Position numbers and translations under genes: made by a program. From a virus, in IMG/VR virus record IMGVR_UViG_3300008255_000077, positions 1-36,286 of that record: DNA of 36,286 bases; one strand, 5' to 3'. The notes under the pieces are model-generated. The model ran no database searches, was not told the origin of the DNA, and saw nothing but the letters and a program-made list of their open reading frames with translations. Positions 2,968 to 33,728 of the stretch are shown here, piece after piece (the stretch's first letter is position 1; the number at the start of each line of letters is the position of its first letter).

Positions 2968-3969
2968 TCACCATTCGATAATTACAACGCCAGCGGCTCC
3001 GGATCTGCCTGCCAGCGCTGCGGTTGAATTCCCACTAACTTGATGCCCACCCCCTGATCCACGCACTACGCCGGATTGCTGCGCTCGACGGCCGCCGCCA
3101 AGAACACTGGATCCGGATAAACCGTTTGATATTGGCGATACAGATGCACCAATCGATATGGCGGTTGTTCCGTCACTACCTGAAATATTAAGTGCACCGC
3201 CAGATCCTGTCCCGCCGTTTCCGCCTGTTGCGACGGCATTTATCGAGCTTGCAGCTCCACCCGTGCCGCCATCACCCCCAGTGGCTGAATAAAATGCACC
3301 AAATGAAGATACTCCTCCATTCGACCCTGGGTTAGCCCCAGCCGCCCCAGCCGCCCCAGCCGCCCCAATAGTCACGGAAACGCTGGCCACCCCGGTTAAA
3401 TCGAGTATTCCTATTGCCGCCCCACCACCCCCGCCCGCGCCTGATGCAGCTGATTGAGTTACATCAGTCGCACCACATCCACCGCTACCTCCGCCGCCTC
3501 CAACAACAGTGACTTTTGGCTTTATGTAGCCGAGCCGCATAGCCAAAGGAACAGACCATGACTGCGTGCTCGTCAGAACAACCATGCCATGCTGGGATTG
3601 AGGCGACCACTGCGAAGGGGACGATGCTGGTGAATTGCCCACGTTGGTATCCACAAGCGACACGTACAGCACGCCCGCCACGTTAGTGATCGATCCTGTG
3701 TGATATTCCTGAGCGGCGTTGTATTCGGCCACCCCCATCTGGTGCAGGTAGGCGTGGATCTGGCCGAGAGTGAATCCCATCGCGTTAAAATCTTGCAGCG
3801 TCGGCTGATCGGACGGCCCGACATTCCCCCAGCCGCGAAGCAGGAAGGCGTTAAACTGATCTGTCAGGTCGTCAGACTGAGAGCCGGTGCCGAAAATAGT
3901 CCGCTCAGTTCCGAGCGCAGCAGAAGCGGGCGCCTCAAGGTTGCCGTTGTACCGCGTAATTTTTGCCAT
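2968..3969 (-). CDS. tail fiber protein with Gly-rich C-terminal domain
   Basis: It is the last gene of the baseplate module. The C-terminal 200 aa consist of GGxGG/GxG beta-helix-like repeats ending in VVIIEW. A SPSQWSP carbohydrate-binding-like motif lies mid-protein. Confidence 0.75.
   Translation of the reverse strand: MAKITRYNGNLEAPASAALGTERTIFGTGSQSDDLTDQFNAFLLRGWGNVGPSDQPTLQDFNAMGFTLGQIHAYLHQMGVAEYNAAQEYHTGSITNVAGVLYVSLVDTNVGNSPASSPSQWSPQSQHGMVVLTSTQSWSVPLAMRLGYIKPKVTVVGGGGGSGGCGATDVTQSAASGAGGGGGAAIGILDLTGVASVSVTIGAAGAAGAAGANPGSNGGVSSFGAFYSATGGDGGTGGAASSINAVATGGNGGTGSGGALNISGSDGTTAISIGASVSPISNGLSGSSVLGGGRRAQQSGVVRGSGGGHQVSGNSTAALAGRSGAAGVVIIEW
3335..3367. repeat. 9-bp tandem repeat (GCCCCAGCC x about 3.7) inside the tail fiber gene
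   Basis: Read directly from the sequence. The repeat is in frame and encodes (GAA)n in IGAAGAAGAAGAN. Confidence 0.85.
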
Positions 3970-24261: not shown

Positions 24262-24343
24262 AACTCACCTCTGTTATTCACCTGTAAGGATTGCGCCAGG
24301 CCGCAGGTGTTCGGCTTTTCGAGGATCAGTCTAGGCGCAGTTG

Positions 24344-27331: not shown

Positions 27332-28480
27332 CTAGTAAGAAATGGAAATGCGCGGAACACTGCCGGAAGCGATCAGCTTAACGACTGCCTTGGCTTGCTC
27401 TTCGCTGATGCCAGATTTCATGATTGCCTCTTTTGCCGCCTTGAGAACTGCGCCTTTATGCGCGCGGTCTTTCTCGCGGGCGTCGGCTTCGCGCTGAATG
27501 CGGGCCTGTTCGTCAGCCTGGCGCTGTCGCTCGGCTTGCTCGGCACGCTCTACAGCTTCGGCCTGGCGCTGCTCTGCGGCTACCCGATCAAGCTCTGCCT
27601 GCTTCTCTGCTGCAATGCGGCGCTGCTCGGCCAGCTCAGCATTCAACCGCGCCTGCTCTGCTGCTGCGGCTGCGTCTCGCTTGTCCTGTTCAGCCTGGCG
27701 CTGTGCCTGGGCTGCCTGTTCGATCAACTCAGCCTCTCGCCGCTTGGCTGCCGCCTCAGCCTCTGCGGCTTCGCGGGCCACGTTCTCCCGGTAGGCCTGG
27801 GCGCGCTGCTCGGCTTCGCGGGTGGCACGCTCAGCAGCCTCTTGTGCGATGCGGTCGCGTTCGGCCTTGGCGTCGCGCTCGGCCTGCTCTGCCTGGAACT
27901 TGGCGATGGCCGCCAGCTCGGCTTCGTGCTTATCGCGGATCACCAGGGCTTCACGCAATGCGGTCAGCGCTTTGTCTTTGGTGCGCGCCGCCTCGGCTTC
28001 GAACTCTTCCCAGCTCTGGTCAATTACAATGCCTTCAATGCAGGCGATGCTGGCTTTCAGTTCGGCCCCGTCAAGGTCGCGGCACTCAAGGCGCAGCTTC
28101 ATGTAATCAATATTTGCTTGATGGCGAGCAACACGCGCCGCCTCGTCGGCCTCCCATGCGGTCAGCGGTGCACGAACTTCTGCCTGCCAGGCGTCCAGAA
28201 GATCACGCATGCGCTTGCGCTCGGCGTCGATCTTCTTTGGCACTTCCTTCAGCTCGGCTACAAGGTCTTTGCCGACATTGTCCAGAGCCGTCTTTGACCG
28301 TGCGATCTTGTAGGCGATAGACCGGATTGCGTCCTGGCCTTTCTTCGTGGCCACGTCCGGCACGAAGCAGTCAATCTCTGCGCGGATCTTTGCCAGGTAC
28401 GGGTCAAGACCTTGCTCGGCGCTGAACACCTGCAAGGCGTTTTCTTTTTGAACGGTTACGACTTCGGTTGTGCTGGTCAT
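27332..28480 (-). CDS. DUF1351-like protein with a long A/E/Q/R coiled-coil insert
   Basis: 382 aa upstream of recT, a position where DUF1351 proteins occur in other phages as I remember. About 170 aa are low-complexity (AEQAERDAKAERDRIAQEAAERATREAEQRAQ...). The SD GAGGA lies 7 nt before the ATG. Confidence 0.65.
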   Translation of the reverse strand: MTSTTEVVTVQKENALQVFSAEQGLDPYLAKIRAEIDCFVPDVATKKGQDAIRSIAYKIARSKTALDNVGKDLVAELKEVPKKIDAERKRMRDLLDAWQAEVRAPLTAWEADEAARVARHQANIDYMKLRLECRDLDGAELKASIACIEGIVIDQSWEEFEAEAARTKDKALTALREALVIRDKHEAELAAIAKFQAEQAERDAKAERDRIAQEAAERATREAEQRAQAYRENVAREAAEAEAAAKRREAELIEQAAQAQRQAEQDKRDAAAAAEQARLNAELAEQRRIAAEKQAELDRVAAEQRQAEAVERAEQAERQRQADEQARIQREADAREKDRAHKGAVLKAAKEAIMKSGISEEQAKAVVKLIASGSVPRISISY

Positions 28481-30483: not shown

Positions 30484-30831
30484 TCAGTCTCTCCCCTGGT
30501 TCAATTCACGGTTAAGGTCAGCCAGCAGCAATGCGTTGTACTCTGCGTCATCGTCGATTCGCTGAGCCTTGCTGCTGACAAACGGCTTACGCTGGGCTTC
30601 AATGTGGCGCTCGATTTTGGCAAGTGCCTCGCCTAGCTCTGGTGCGTGGCGCAAGCAAGAGCACATGACCTTTTGCCAATCCTCACGACCCGTCTCGATC
30701 ACCGCCAGGCACAGCGACTCAATCAGCGGGTTCATGTCCGCCGCGACGTACTCCGCGTATGCCTCAAGCGTTGGCTCGTGCCCTTCGTCCAGGGCTACGG
30801 TTACGGCGCCTTCAATCTCTGCCAGGGTCAT
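30484..30831 (-). CDS. hypothetical protein
   Basis: The internal start MTLAEIEG is coupled by ATGA to the upstream stop at 30828. Confidence 0.55.
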   Translation of the reverse strand: MTLAEIEGAVTVALDEGHEPTLEAYAEYVAADMNPLIESLCLAVIETGREDWQKVMCSCLRHAPELGEALAKIERHIEAQRKPFVSSKAQRIDDDAEYNALLLADLNRELNQGRD

Positions 30832-31061
30832 TTGGCACGCTCCGCAAGCATGGCGTCGGCGATACGATAGGCGTCCCGCGCAGCTCGCTCGATTTCGCAC
30901 TCATACCGATATGCCTCGTAGCCAGTCACGCACGCAGCAAGCGCCTTAGCCGCGAAGTAGTCACGAAGGCTCATGCCAGGCTCTGCATAGGCCACGATAT
31001 CGACGTTGTGGACGGTCACTTCGTTAGCCGGAAACGCCGGCCCGCCATTGTCTTTGCTCAT
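30828..31061 (-). CDS. hypothetical protein (first early-left gene)
   Basis: 77 aa. GGPAFP...GMSLRDYFAAKAL is a recurrent small phage-protein pattern. The SD GAGGGAG lies upstream. Confidence 0.6.
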   Translation of the reverse strand: MSKDNGGPAFPANEVTVHNVDIVAYAEPGMSLRDYFAAKALAACVTGYEAYRYECEIERAARDAYRIADAMLAERAK

Positions 31062-31104
31062 GCTGAATCACTCCCTCTATTGGTTGTTCGTTTCGTTGAG
31101 CCGA

Positions 31105-31133
31105 ACTTTAGGCTGTTCTTTATAGTGCGTCAA
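31105..31133 (-). promoter_or_regulatory. leftward early promoter TTGACG-N17-TAAAGT
   Basis: Read on the minus strand: -35 at 31133-31128 and -10 at 31110-31105, about 40 nt upstream of the first leftward gene. Confidence 0.5.
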
Positions 31134-31138
31134 GCACT
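31124..31138. promoter_or_regulatory. 15-bp palindromic operator candidate AGTGC-N5-GCACT
   Basis: A perfect 5-bp inverted repeat that overlaps the leftward -35 and touches the rightward -35. Confidence 0.45.
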
Positions 31139-31165
31139 TGCTTAATCTATTTTTAAGCTTATGAT
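31138..31165 (+). promoter_or_regulatory. rightward early promoter TTGCTT-N16-TATGAT
   Basis: Read on the plus strand. It lies back to back with the leftward promoter, about 28 nt upstream of the Cro-like ATG region. Confidence 0.5.
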
Positions 31166-31192
31166 TGGCGGAACATAAACCGGAGCGTGACT

Positions 31193-31402
31193 ATGAACAC
31201 CAAAGAGACTATCGAGTTTTTCGGCAGCCCAACGAACCTGGCAGAAGCAATCGGCATAACCATCCAGGCAGTCCACCAATGGAAGGACACCGTGCCTTTA
31301 GGCCGTCGCGACTCGGTTCGCCAGGCAATGAAGGTTCGCGCGGACAAGCTAATTCTTGAGGCGCGCGGCCTGCGGAAGGCAGCCAAGACGGGTGGAAAAT
31401 GA
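31193..31402 (+). CDS. Cro/YdaS-like HTH regulator
   Basis: 69 aa. The HTH is GSPTNLAEAIGITIQAVHQWK. GGAG lies 7 nt upstream of ATG 31193. It is the first rightward gene. Confidence 0.7.
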   Translation: MNTKETIEFFGSPTNLAEAIGITIQAVHQWKDTVPLGRRDSVRQAMKVRADKLILEARGLRKAAKTGGK

Positions 31403-31950
31403 CCACGGAAAAGCGTGAGTCATTCACCAAAAAAAAGCGGTTCGACATTTTCAAGCGCGACGGCTTCCGGTGCCAATACTGCGGATCTTCTCCGCCTGAG
31501 GTTGTGCTTGAGATAGACCACATTCACCCGATATCAAAGGGCGGAACAAACACAATCGACAACCTGCTGACCGCTTGCTTCGACTGTAACCGCGGGAAAT
31601 CAAACGGGCTGCTTGAGGTCGCGCCAGAATCAATTGCAGATAAGGCCGAAAAGCTCGCGGAAAAGCGCGAGCAACTGAAGGCGTATGAGAGGCTGCAAAA
31701 GTCAATCCGAAAAGAACAGGATAAGCAGATAGACGAGCTGCAAGAGATTATGCGCAGCCACCACCCCGGAAAGGTTTTTAGCGATAAATTCAAGCTAGAC
31801 ATTCGCCGTCAGTTTATGCCGAGGCTGGCATTTTTCCATATACGGGAAGCCATGGAGCAGGCAATGGTCAGGGCGAGGCAAGGCGGGTGCGAGGGCGCAG
31901 TAAAGTACTTTTGCGGCATATGCTGGAAGGTCATCAGGGGGTCTGAATGA
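31399..31950 (+). CDS. HNH endonuclease with helical C-terminal extension
   Basis: CQYCG...EIDHIHPISKGGTNTIDNLLTACFDCNRGK is a canonical HNH core. It has ATGA coupling on both sides. Confidence 0.85.
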   Translation: MTTEKRESFTKKKRFDIFKRDGFRCQYCGSSPPEVVLEIDHIHPISKGGTNTIDNLLTACFDCNRGKSNGLLEVAPESIADKAEKLAEKREQLKAYERLQKSIRKEQDKQIDELQEIMRSHHPGKVFSDKFKLDIRRQFMPRLAFFHIREAMEQAMVRARQGGCEGAVKYFCGICWKVIRGSE

Positions 31951-32747
31951 ACTACTACGCCTTCCACCTGGGCGACTACGCAAGCGCGACTGGCCACCTT
32001 ACATGGGATGAGGACATGGCCTATCGCCGCCTGATCGATGTCTATTACCAGAAAGAGGCTCCGCTTCCAGATGACATGCGGCAGGTGTACAGGCTTGCTC
32101 GTGCACAGACTGACGAGCACAGACAGGCAATCAATACGGTGCTTTCTGAGTTCTTCGAGCTAACCGATGAAGGGTGGCGTCACTTCCGATGCGATGCCGA
32201 AATACAGGCAATTTCCGGCAAGCGTGAAAAGGCATCGCAAAGCGCCAAGGCTCGATGGAGCAAAGCCAAATCACTGCCAACGCAATGCGAAGGCAATGCG
32301 AACGCATCGAATAATGAATGCGAACGCATGGAAAACGAATGCGAACGCAATGCTCCCAACCCCAACCCCAACCCCAACCCCAACCAAGAGCAAAACAATA
32401 CGGCCAAACCTGAAAAGCCGGAGCGCGCAAAAAATGTGACGGCTTCCGATCTGGCTGGAATGGGGGTAAACGAACAGCACGCTAAAGACTGGCTAGCCGT
32501 CCGAAAGCAGAAGAAGGCCCCGCTAACACCGACGGCCATGGCCGCTACCAAGCGAGAGGCCGACAAGGCTGGTCTGTCGATACCGGAGGCAATCAGGATC
32601 GCAGCAGAAAGCGGATGGGCTGGATTCAAGGCGGAATGGGTGAAGGGCGGGAAAGCAGGCAAGCCGGCAGGCATACACCACGGCTTTGACGATATCGACT
32701 ACAACGCGGGGCTAGTGCTCCGAGAGGATGGCACGCATGGACTCTAA
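31947..32747 (+). CDS. replication protein (DUF1376/YdaU-like N-domain, DnaT-like C-domain)
   Basis: The N-terminus MNYYAFHLGDYASATGHLTWDEDMAYRRLIDVYY is the DUF1376 pattern. The C-terminal part (QHAKDWLAVRKQKKAPLT...GWAGFKAEW) is separated from it by a repeat-encoded linker. The gene lies upstream of the DnaC-like loader. Confidence 0.75.
   Translation: MNYYAFHLGDYASATGHLTWDEDMAYRRLIDVYYQKEAPLPDDMRQVYRLARAQTDEHRQAINTVLSEFFELTDEGWRHFRCDAEIQAISGKREKASQSAKARWSKAKSLPTQCEGNANASNNECERMENECERNAPNPNPNPNPNQEQNNTAKPEKPERAKNVTASDLAGMGVNEQHAKDWLAVRKQKKAPLTPTAMAATKREADKAGLSIPEAIRIAAESGWAGFKAEWVKGGKAGKPAGIHHGFDDIDYNAGLVLREDGTHGL
32284..32349. repeat. four 12-bp iterons AATGCGAA(C/G)GCA at 32284, 32295, 32317, 32338
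   Basis: Three copies are perfect and one has a single mismatch. The spacings are 11, 22 and 21 bp. Each contains the dyad TGCG-AA-CGCA. Confidence 0.6.
32355..32384. repeat. hexanucleotide tandem repeat (CCCAAC x5, i.e. C4A2 units)
   Basis: Read directly from the sequence. It encodes PNPNPNPNPN in the replication protein linker. The complementary strand is (T2G4)n. Confidence 0.9.
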
Positions 32748-33519
32748 CCAAGACGTTCAAATCTCGACCGCCGTATGCGAAAAGCACGGAGAGTTTGAAC
32801 AGAAATCTTTCCAAATTCCGATGTTCAAGAAGCGCACCTGCTCACGGTGCCCGACTTGTGAGGCCGAGCAGAAGGCCGAAGAGGACAAGCGCCAGCGCAT
32901 GCAAGACGACTTTATTCGCCAGATCCGCTTACGTGAAAAGCTCGGGTCAGCGGCCGTGCCCAAGCGGTTTGATGGCAAGCGGTTTGATGGATACCTGTGC
33001 GACTCCCCGGAGAAGTCGGCGGCGCTGGAGAAGTGCAAGGCCTTCGTCGACAACTTCAAGGACAACTTTTCGGTCGGGCGAAACCTGATCTTGATCGGCA
33101 CGCCAGGTACAGGCAAGACGCACCTCGGAACCTCGATTGCCAACCATCTGAACCACAACACTGGATACACGGCTGCTTATCGCACGATTGGAGGCGTTCT
33201 ACAGGCCATTAAAGAGACGTTTAACGGCGACGGCAGCGAGAGTGAGGGCGGAATCATTGCGGGCCTCACAGGCGTTGATCTGCTCGTTCTGGACGAAATA
33301 GGGGCAACACGGGAAACGCCAAGCGATTTCGAGCTGTCGACCATCTTCGCCATCATCAACGGCCGATACGAAAGCGAGCTGCCTACCGTGATCATTTCCA
33401 ACCTGTCAGCCGAGGCGCTGACCCAGGCCATGGGTGATCGTTGCGTGGATCGGCTGCGCGAGGGTTCGCCGGTAGTGGTTCAGTTCAAATGGGAATCAGC
33501 GCGCCGGGGTATCGCATGA
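32737..33519 (+). CDS. DnaC/IstB-like AAA+ helicase loader
   Basis: Walker A (GTPGTGKTH) and Walker B (LLVLDEIG) motifs are present. I prefer the start at ATG 32737 because of its SD (GAGAGGA). The ORF opens at 32728. Confidence 0.85.
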   Translation: MDSNQDVQISTAVCEKHGEFEQKSFQIPMFKKRTCSRCPTCEAEQKAEEDKRQRMQDDFIRQIRLREKLGSAAVPKRFDGKRFDGYLCDSPEKSAALEKCKAFVDNFKDNFSVGRNLILIGTPGTGKTHLGTSIANHLNHNTGYTAAYRTIGGVLQAIKETFNGDGSESEGGIIAGLTGVDLLVLDEIGATRETPSDFELSTIFAIINGRYESELPTVIISNLSAEALTQAMGDRCVDRLREGSPVVVQFKWESARRGIA

Positions 33520-33728
33520 ACTGGTCGCGCTCATCCGCCTACTTGATGGCTGGCGAACACGGTTACAAGGTCGCCAAGTTCCTGGTAGGCGACCAGTCGC
33601 AATATCGGGCAAGCCTTGGCGGGCGGTTCCTGGGTCAAGTGCAGGAGTCGGCCGAAGATGCCTGCCAGGTGTGCGAGTCGCATTTTCAAATCATGGGTGA
33701 AGAGATTGCTGATGAGTTGACGCCCTGA
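33516..33728 (+). CDS. hypothetical protein
   Basis: The internal start MNWSRSS is coupled by ATGA to the loader stop. Confidence 0.55.
   Translation: MNWSRSSAYLMAGEHGYKVAKFLVGDQSQYRASLGGRFLGQVQESAEDACQVCESHFQIMGEEIADELTP

Follow-up and report, generated by a model that had tools for sequence, protein, structure and literature searches.

The stretch of DNA considered here, IMG/VR virus record IMGVR_UViG_3300008255_000077 (positions 1 to 36,286, hereafter ‘the window’, meaning the whole 36,286-nucleotide stretch), is essentially the complete genome of a myovirus-like temperate phage. It includes a gene for a replication initiator of the DUF1376 family, in the middle part of which there is an array of short, regularly spaced repeats (iterons), followed directly by a microsatellite composed of C and A and by an A-rich tract. 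It had been proposed from the letters of the sequence (hereafter the original prediction) that these features make up a replication origin located within the initiator gene, in an arrangement mirroring that of phage lambda. That interpretation is supported by the sequence comparisons and structural models described below; the coordinates of the features are collected in Table 1.

The sequence AATGCGAA(G/C)GCA occurs exactly four times in the window, once as AATGCGAAGGCA and three times as AATGCGAACGCA, at the places at which the original prediction had put it; there is no copy at any promoter or anywhere else in the window. Exact matches to AATGCGAASGCA number four where 0.05 would be expected, and none of 100 dinucleotide-preserving shuffles gave four. 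If up to two mismatches to the iteron are tolerated, the sole additional local match is a degenerate copy at 32273, and the five non-local matches in the window are no more than chance would give. Spaced by 11, 22 and 21 bp, also as predicted, the four copies lie at 0, 17, 51 and 51 degrees (at 10.5 bp per turn), so that the iterons face one side of the helix. They stand out as the strong copies within a degenerate array with a period of 11 bp and some 7-9 units (approximately 32260-32361), which was recovered both by Tandem Repeats Finder (TRF) and by a repeat-family search, and which an unbiased scan of the 36 kb in 220-nt windows ranks as the strongest non-microsatellite repeat cluster of the window. 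The dyad TGCG-AA-CGCA, attributed originally to every copy, is present in copies 2-4 and is longer (ATGCG-AA-CGCAT) in copies 2 and 3, but is imperfect in copy 1. In a similar way, the description of the array as encoding NECER-type repeats holds for copies 3 and 4, which translate as (N)ECER, but not for copies 1 and 2, which are read as QCEGNANA. The codon phases at the starts of copies 1-4 are 1, 0, 1 and 1, and because the copies are read in two phases the iterons are repeats of DNA and not of peptide; the period of the array, 11 bp, is not a multiple of 3.

The protein encoded by the gene is matched by Pfam DUF1376 (PF07120) over residues 2-86 (E 4e-31; 107.6 bits against a gathering cut-off of 30.1). 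It also matches PHROG families described as ‘primosomal protein’ and ‘replication initiation O-like’, of which the O-like family phrog_678 covers only residues 99-264. A homologue search returned 561 homologues, and those with a recorded Pfam domain among the matches listed all carry PF07120; the same search showed an identical initiator to be encoded by a metagenomic contig of 36,304 bp, and a DUF1376/YdaU protein is present in 140 phage records. The AlphaFold 2 (AF2) model of the full initiator, built on 50 homologues, has a mean predicted local distance difference test score (pLDDT) of 80.8, and consists of an N-terminal domain (N-domain), a linker and a C-terminal domain (C-domain). When modelled alone (residues 1-112) the N-domain reaches a pLDDT of 91 and a predicted template modelling score of 0.78; it is presumed to be the module that binds the iterons. 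Its significant named neighbours amongst predicted viral structures are DUF1376 proteins, a ‘replication protein’, proteins with a Lin1244/Lin1753-like N-terminal domain, a DUF6291 protein and helix-turn-helix proteins, and many further neighbours are unnamed. A Foldseek search of the PDB with the full-length model gave no significant match. The iterons (residues 113-135), the PN repeat and the A-rich tract are all inside the linker that is predicted to be disordered, where coding constraint is lowest, and the original placing of the array in the linker of a DUF1376 protein is thereby borne out. The C-domain is presumed to recruit the loader and helicase. It had been called DnaT-like, a description that finds no support here: residues 161-266 match no Pfam family at E<=1, DnaT (PF17948) included, and a search of PDB sequences with a 50-sequence profile produced nothing relevant, the best being a chance match with E 0.27. 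A weak match to DnaT (E 0.04) appears only in the unrelated, swapped C-domain of a relative, L085, which is discussed below.

Table 1. Features of the initiator gene, the candidate origin within it and the adjoining genes; positions refer to the window.
Feature	Position	Strand	Evidence
Cro-like regulator, first gene of the rightward operon reading through the candidate origin	31187-31402	+	Pfam P22_Cro, E 1e-11
HNH endonuclease gene; stop overlaps initiator start codon (ATGA)	31399-31950	+	Pfam HNH, E 9e-15
Initiator gene, 266 residues: DUF1376 N-domain, disordered linker, helical C-domain	31947-32747	+	Pfam, PHROG, AF2
N-domain, residues 2-109: winged-helix-like core, helices and beta-hairpin (residues 71-78), long helix (residues 80-109)	31950-32273	+	AF2 model
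Degenerate array of 11-bp period, ~9 units	32262-32361	+	Seven in-register copies in one repeat family; TRF periods 11 and 22 at 32260-32353; six contiguous units in relative L010
Degenerate iteron 0, ACTGCCAACGCA, two mismatches	32273-32284	+	Mismatch search, repeat-family search
Predicted disordered linker, residues 110-165, holding the whole proposed origin	32274-32441	+	pLDDT <50 at residues 120-151
Iteron 1, AATGCGAAGGCA	32284-32295	+	Exact match
Iteron 2, AATGCGAACGCA, ATGCG-AA-CGCAT dyad	32295-32306	+	Best-conserved 12-mer of the gene's first 480 nt (majority fraction 0.99)
Iteron 3, AATGCGAACGCA, ATGCG-AA-CGCAT dyad	32317-32328	+	Exact match, relatives' alignment
Iteron 4, AATGCGAACGCA	32338-32349	+	Exact match, relatives' alignment
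Junction of last iteron and microsatellite, GCAATGCTCCCA	32347-32358	+	11 of 12 positions invariant in nine relatives (alignment columns 101-108, 110-112)
(CCCAAC)5.2 microsatellite = (CCCCAA)5; complement (GGGGTT)5	32355-32385	+	TRF, 100% matches
A-rich, T-poor tract	32381-32440	+	27 A and 4 T in 60 nt; 48% G+C vs 57% in the window
Helical C-domain, residues 166-236	32442-32654	+	AF2 model
DnaC/IstB-like AAA+ helicase-loader gene, overlapping the 3' end of the initiator gene	32728-33519	+	Pfam IstB_IS21, E 9e-14; PHROG DnaC-like helicase loader, E 1e-72

There is evidence from close relatives that the iterons are maintained as DNA. Nine genes whose N-domains are 60-89% identical to that of the window were aligned, and conservation was scored as sliding-window majority identity over the first 480 nt of the gene. 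Three iteron blocks, GCAATGCGAACGCA, ATGCGAACGCAT and ATGCGAAGGCAATGCTCCCA, are invariant or almost so in the nine genes, whilst the 10-nt spacers between them drift; majority identity is 0.93-0.99 in the blocks and 0.59-0.70 in the spacers, compared with 0.77 for the DNA coding for the folded N-domain and 0.61 at third codon positions. The blocks are the best-conserved DNA of the 480 nt. Since DNA coding for a disordered linker is thus better conserved than DNA coding for a folded domain, selection appears to act on the DNA itself.

Repeats are also found across the wider family. Eighty viral loci were fetched, yielding 54 distinct linker sequences, and copies of a 9-mer (at most one mismatch) were counted within gene nt 241-460, with 220-nt windows from the flanks (n=1096) as controls. 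At least three copies are present in 39 of the 54 linkers and in 166 of the 1096 controls, and at least four in 16/54 and 14/1096, respectively; the windows coding for the N- and C-domains of the same genes do not differ from the controls. An array in relatives had been expected from the original prediction, and the outcome named there as refuting it, namely the same domains without repeats, was not obtained. Adjacent copies are mostly 11 bp (40 cases) or 22 bp (15 cases) apart, and at 32 of the 39 loci they are read in two or three codon phases. The sequence of the repeat is specific to the clade, the forms including TGCGAACGCA, AACG-AA-CGTT, GTTCAAC every 11 bp, CTGA-AA-TCAG, GAAACCGAA and AACCCA, and several clades keep a 4-2-4 dyad. 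The same layout is seen in ydaU of the Rac prophage, in a 41.6-kb circular plasmid of Burkholderia gladioli and in the cultured phages Pseudomonas AH02 and Acinetobacter phiAC-1, the repeats of the last having the TGCGAACGCA core that is found in the window. An instructive case is L094, a relative that is 72% identical over 41% of the window protein (its N-terminal part). Its linker has AGCG-AA-CGCT three times and GGCGAACGCT once, with spacings of 11, 21 and 22 bp; the site is of the type AGCGAACGCT, and in comparison with TGCG-AA-CGCA the outer base differs in either arm, so that the dyad is preserved. Other motifs occur in particular clades, as seen in the linkers of L014 and L083 (the latter being B. 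gladioli plasmid NZ_CP104216) and in L036-type loci. The palindrome AACCCA-N-TGGGTT ends the repeat array in some clades, whereas in others, which resemble Rac, G-runs precede a pair of C6-7 runs spaced by 12 bp (CCCCCCTAAACACCCCCC); as judged from sequence, these are candidates for further clade-specific origin motifs.

Natural exchanges of domains indicate which part of the protein the repeats belong to. In L085 the N-domain is 87% identical to that of the window, the C-domain is unrelated and the downstream gene is different, and four iterons at unchanged spacing have been kept together with (CCCCAA)5. L084 presents the converse arrangement, with a C-domain that is 81% identical, an unrelated N-domain without a Pfam hit, and GATTCACTGA-type repeats in place of TGCGAACGCA and C4A2, neither of which is present. 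Gene product gp72 of Pseudomonas phage KLEP17-4 likewise has a C-domain 55% identical to that of the window and an unrelated N-domain, with a weak hit to Phage_rep_org_N (E 0.008), and its gene has GTGAACAGCAG six times at 11-12 bp. The sequence of the repeat therefore follows the N-terminal and not the C-terminal domain, the latter being exchanged independently of N-domain and iterons in all three cases, which agrees in that form with the expectation that iterons should co-vary with the initiator. When distinct loci are counted, at least two TGCGAACGCA-like copies (at most one mismatch) are present in 15 of the 19 with an N-domain at least 52% identical and in one of the 41 others. KLEP17-4 gp72 (L082, 2360-2440) and L084 (2830-2970) have phased repeats of their own in the linker, and because their N-domains are of other kinds, an ‘origin in linker’ design would seem to span several initiator families that exchange C-domains.

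The tract on the 3' side of the iterons forms a second element. The original prediction of a C4A2 repeat leading into an A-rich stretch is confirmed by TRF and by composition. The top strand of the microsatellite is without T and G, and lies within the most A+C-rich stretch of the window (maximum A+C 0.95 at 32356). In most of 57 related genes the most A+C-rich 36-nt window is found at gene nt 328-420, just 3' of the iterons, and an A+C tandem repeat occupies that place in 46 of the 57, with a period of 7 in 38 and of 6 in eight. The units vary (AACCAAG/AACCAAT, CCAGACA, AAACATA, CCAACA and ACAGAT, with CCCCAA in the window), but across relatives the top strand is almost T-free and G-poor. With units of 7 bp the repetition cannot be one of peptide, and the gain or loss of a single unit would shift the reading frame; the A+C repeat is accordingly read as a second feature at the level of DNA. 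It goes with the DUF1376 N-domain, being absent from L084 and KLEP17-4 gp72, which have only the C-domain in common with the window. In most relatives the tract is far richer in AT than the gene as a whole (G+C 0.33 versus 0.59 in the B. gladioli plasmid and 0.31 versus 0.59 in L028) and therefore fits a DNA-unwinding element; in the window the fit is poor, (CCCCAA)5 being 67% G+C. The easily melted region of the original prediction is thus borne out only weakly in the window, by the A-rich tract (Table 1). What is conserved everywhere is the pairing of an A+C strand with a G+T strand. Since hairpins are not possible in either of them, an opened bubble would stay single-stranded, and the strand asymmetry may matter for helicase loading or for strand-specific recognition. 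We do not favour a conserved G-quadruplex function for (GGGGTT)5, a motif that is limited to the closest relatives, the distant ones having CCCAAT, CCAGACA or AACCAAG.

From this pattern of sequence we consider it probable that 32262-32440 is the phage's origin of bidirectional (theta) replication, situated inside the disordered linker of its own initiator gene in the manner of ori-lambda in gene O. The lambda arrangement, with iterons inside gene O, has been described (PMC7466680). In the lambda sequence, nt 349-433 of gene O hold the four annotated iterons, and ACAAAAGAAAAAAGAAAAGA comes after them; in the window the iterons are likewise in the middle of the initiator gene and start almost equally far from the start codon (nt 338-403), the main copies number four and all have a dyad (with the reservation on copy 1 made above), an A-rich, T-poor coding-strand tract comes next, a loader/helicase-recruiting gene is directly downstream, and the whole element is downstream of cro in the rightward operon. 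The lambda-like arrangement of the original prediction is in this sense upheld, the likeness being one of function and not of homology. The differences are also clear. The initiator of the window is not homologous to O (BLASTP E 2.9; Pfam finds DUF1376 and no other family), its iterons are 10-12 bp long at 11-bp phasing as against 18-19 bp at 20-24 bp in lambda, its loader is DnaC/IstB-like and not lambda P, and the flank is an A+C-only microsatellite (of period 6 or 7 in the family) that is not AT-rich in the window. In lambdoid phages, iterons go with the N-terminal domain of the initiator and the partner gene with the C-terminal domain, and an intragenic ori occurs also in P22 gene 18 and in phi80. 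The Stx phages, too, are lambdoid phages with ori inside gene O.

Amongst true relatives, the closest for which an origin is known is the Rac prophage of E. coli K-12, in which oriJ is reportedly active (PMC3945230). The original prediction had held that no origin is characterized in the DUF1376 family; this needs the caveat that Rac, whose ydaU is a DUF1376 gene, has an origin known functionally. The N-domain of YdaU is 28% identical to that of the window over 131 aligned residues (E 2e-12), and ydaU is followed by ydaV, a putative ATP-binding (DnaC-like) gene. The ydaU linker has five or six repeats of the type TGTT-CA-AACA at gene nt ~359-470, and then ACAGAT/AAAGAT repeats; two C7 runs are also present in it (L081, which is E. 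coli K-12 MG1655 1419000-1425000; 2470-2660). Rac differs from the window in the sequence of the iterons and in the C-domain. A literature search found no fine map of oriJ and no coordinates beyond PCR primers, nothing on ydaU and ydaV together with replication, and no paper on origins of DUF1376/YdaU proteins (DUF1376 is absent from the titles and abstracts of papers naming it); a 2026 preprint on Rac states nothing on the origin. Our own prediction, made from sequence, is that oriJ corresponds to the ydaU repeats.

Theta-replicating plasmids of the RepA/pi/RepE/TrfA type have phased direct repeats, bound by a winged-helix initiator, beside an unwinding element. Their iterons are ~17-22 bp and lie outside the rep gene, and their Rep proteins have two winged-helix domains; the Rep proteins, like lambda O, also make contact with a single strand of the element once it has opened. 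Single-stranded DNA binding by O is mentioned in PMC7466680. The initiator of the window differs in matching no Pfam Rep family and in having a single winged-helix-like domain in the model, and its iterons are 10-12 bp and intragenic. DnaA boxes were not identified in the window, although no systematic search for them was made. A further precedent is oriL of SPP1, which lies inside gene 38, the gene for the replisome organizer G38P (Pfam Phage_rep_org_N), so that here too the origin repeats are in the initiator's own gene. The window resembles SPP1 in this and in the adjoining helicase-loader gene, and KLEP17-4 gp72 combines the C-domain of the window with a weak Phage_rep_org_N match and with 11-bp linker repeats of its own. 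The two systems differ in the family of the N-domain, in host clade and in the sequences of the repeats, and no similarity to the N-domain of the window was detected.

Several observations weigh against the assignment of an origin to 32262-32440. A literature search found no report of DNA binding by any DUF1376 initiator. In a Foldseek search of the PDB with the N-domain, the top 50 matches are mostly winged-helix modules (MarR, ORC2, LexA, Rio2, RuvB, CggR and DnaD), but none is significant (best E 0.25, TM <=0.49), and ‘winged-helix-like’ is for that reason a statement about fold class only. Fewer than three copies were found in 15 of the 54 linkers by the 9-mer criterion. The association of TGCGAACGCA-like copies with the N-domain has a Fisher P of 1e-9 that is inflated because loci share ancestry. 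The tract expected to melt is not AT-rich in the window, its most A+C-rich 36 nt having a G+C of 0.53 compared with 0.56 for the gene. GC skew was considered as evidence and set aside; its minimum at ~31.2 kb coincides with the switch in gene orientation at ~31.1 kb, and since the skew switches with gene orientation it is uninformative on the origin. Finally, the published PCR primers ‘framing oriJ’ (PMC3945230, supplementary table) map inside ydaV (L081 3241-3395), ~700 bp downstream of the ydaU repeats. Origin-type repeats were looked for in ydaV and in the loader gene of the window and none was found; we treat the primers as a nearby copy-number probe and not as a map.

Some of these points would suit a different role for the same sites, in which the repeats bind the initiator for the purpose of regulation (autoregulation, titration or handcuffing, or a transcription roadblock) and unwinding and helicase loading occur at some other site, such as the loader gene or the region of highest AT content (~31080-31220). 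This is the alternative that survives best, although we regard it as unlikely. It would accommodate the ydaV primers and the composition of the tract adjoining the iterons, as well as the fact that the lowest G+C of the window (0.375-0.41) is at 31081-31220 and not beside the iterons. However, 31081-31220 is a divergent intergenic control region without an iteron copy, an operator for autoregulation ought to lie at the promoter and not 1.1 kb downstream of it within a gene, most relatives have a 3' tract that clearly exceeds the gene in AT content (by the values given above), and there is no repeat cluster in the loader gene of either Rac or the window.

It might also be supposed that the repeats arose neutrally, by slippage during replication of a coding linker of low constraint and low complexity, and have no function as DNA. 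The region does code for a disordered linker in which microsatellite-like repeats are abundant, and copy number varies amongst close relatives (4-5 C4A2 units; 3-6 iterons). Against this, no other DNA in the first 480 nt is as well conserved as the iteron blocks, which far exceed synonymous positions although the spacers between them drift; one sequence is kept across different reading frames; the identity of the repeat follows the N-domain through recombination events; and period-7 units persist although slippage would frameshift the gene. The idea, which we consider very improbable, is on the sequence evidence already largely refuted by the footprint and by the co-variation with the N-domain. 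No better placed is the view that the repeats serve mainly as a junction for recombination and module exchange, or that the HNH homing endonuclease associated with them has its target there. Mosaic breakpoints do come directly after the microsatellite (L084, L085), an HNH gene is translationally coupled upstream, and in the relatives P0005 and P0071 an HNH domain is in-frame 5' of the iterons. Yet this would leave unexplained why the repeats are several, why they are phased on the helix at 11 bp and have dyads, and why they co-vary with the N-domain, and most relatives (Rac, phiAC-1, AH02 and the B. gladioli plasmid) have the array without an adjacent HNH. Moreover, a junction is compatible with an origin and does not exclude it; lambda O/ori is also a module junction. 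Least probable of all is that the repeats bind some protein other than the DUF1376 initiator (a host factor, a Cro-like regulator or a partition protein), although the evidence that links the repeats to the N-domain is indirect and short phased direct repeats are typical of centromere-like sites. The repeat sequence tracks the N-domain of its own gene even where a swap has left a different regulator upstream and a different gene downstream, the neighbourhood shows no par genes, and a host-factor site would not diversify by clade.

If 32262-32440 is the origin, its function could be envisaged as follows. The winged-helix-like DUF1376 domain would bind the iterons on one face of the helix to give an O-some-like nucleoprotein complex. 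This complex would strain the DNA and open the adjacent (CCCCAA)5/A-rich tract, the A+C and G+T strands of which, being unable to fold back, would stay single-stranded. The C-domain would then bring to the opened DNA the DnaC-like loader encoded next door, together with the host DnaB helicase that the loader carries. Transcription running rightward from a promoter on the cro side would cross the site and may help activation as in lambda. What the sequence points to would be an intragenic iteron origin that serves an initiator family non-homologous to lambda O, with an A+C microsatellite replacing the AT-rich element; the principle is a known one. More tentatively, DUF1376/YdaU initiators may use a previously undescribed unwinding or loading element, a strand-asymmetric, A+C-only tandem repeat of period 6-7 that replaces the generic AT-rich tract and travels with the DUF1376 domain and the iterons. 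It could act either as an array whose single strand the initiator recognizes by sequence or as a hairpin-free landing pad for the loader-helicase complex, in the window even at its high G+C; we think this possible, with the odds against it.

The surroundings of the initiator gene are those of a phage replication operon. The minus strand carries the genes for terminase, portal, protease, major head and sheath proteins, a RecT-like protein and a methyltransferase; a divergent control region near 31.1 kb is followed by the rightward operon, which continues beyond the loader gene with an open reading frame (ORF) at the position of NinB and with NinG. The loader gene contains a perfect 15-bp tandem duplication at 32961-32990 (CAAGCGGTTTGATGG twice), which encodes KRFDGKRFDG. 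The HNH-initiator synteny is found also in L084 and L085. In the relatives P0005, P0071, P0076 and P0094 the HNH domain is within the same protein as DUF1376, and in P0005 and P0071 it is inserted in-frame in the linker, which in L094 (P0005; 2001-3068) puts it just 5' of the iterons. This placement suggests either a functional link of the nuclease with the origin or a homing element that targets the origin, and where it is coupled to the initiator or inserted into the linker the HNH nuclease might take part in origin processing. No near-identical DNA was found amongst sequenced phages, so that there is no annotated close relative, and a scan of a genome collection gave six loci only, from which no host stands out. 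A promoter and terminator scan of 30800-33700 gave counts at chance level. An Rfam scan had no match in the origin region, the sole match in the window being an int-alpA RNA (RF02996) at 24275-24341 on the minus strand (37.4 bits; gathering cut-off 35.8). The second-best repeat cluster of the window, of the GCTGCTCTGC type, is at 27568-27919 in a minus-strand ORF (27332-28480; phrog_1376, function unknown); its spacings of 33, 21 and 30 bp are all multiples of 3 and it resembles a coding repeat. At 3335-3367 a perfect 9-bp tandem repeat (GCCCCAGCC, 3.7 copies) lies within another minus-strand ORF (2968-3969).

Temperate phages, prophages and phage-plasmids of Proteobacteria, and also of other groups, commonly have a replication protein of the DUF1376/YdaU family. 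The candidate described here amounts to a base-pair-level origin prediction for the whole family, including the Rac prophage of E. coli K-12 and cultured phages of Acinetobacter, Pseudomonas and Vibrio, and could be of use in annotating origins, in building minimal replicons and in reading mosaic breakpoints. The conserved period-7 A+C repeat stands out as an unexplained feature. Because the origin would be placed in the initiator's own linker, binding sites and binding domain would be inherited as one module, and the solution known from lambda, an origin in the linker of the initiator, would have arisen with an unrelated initiator.

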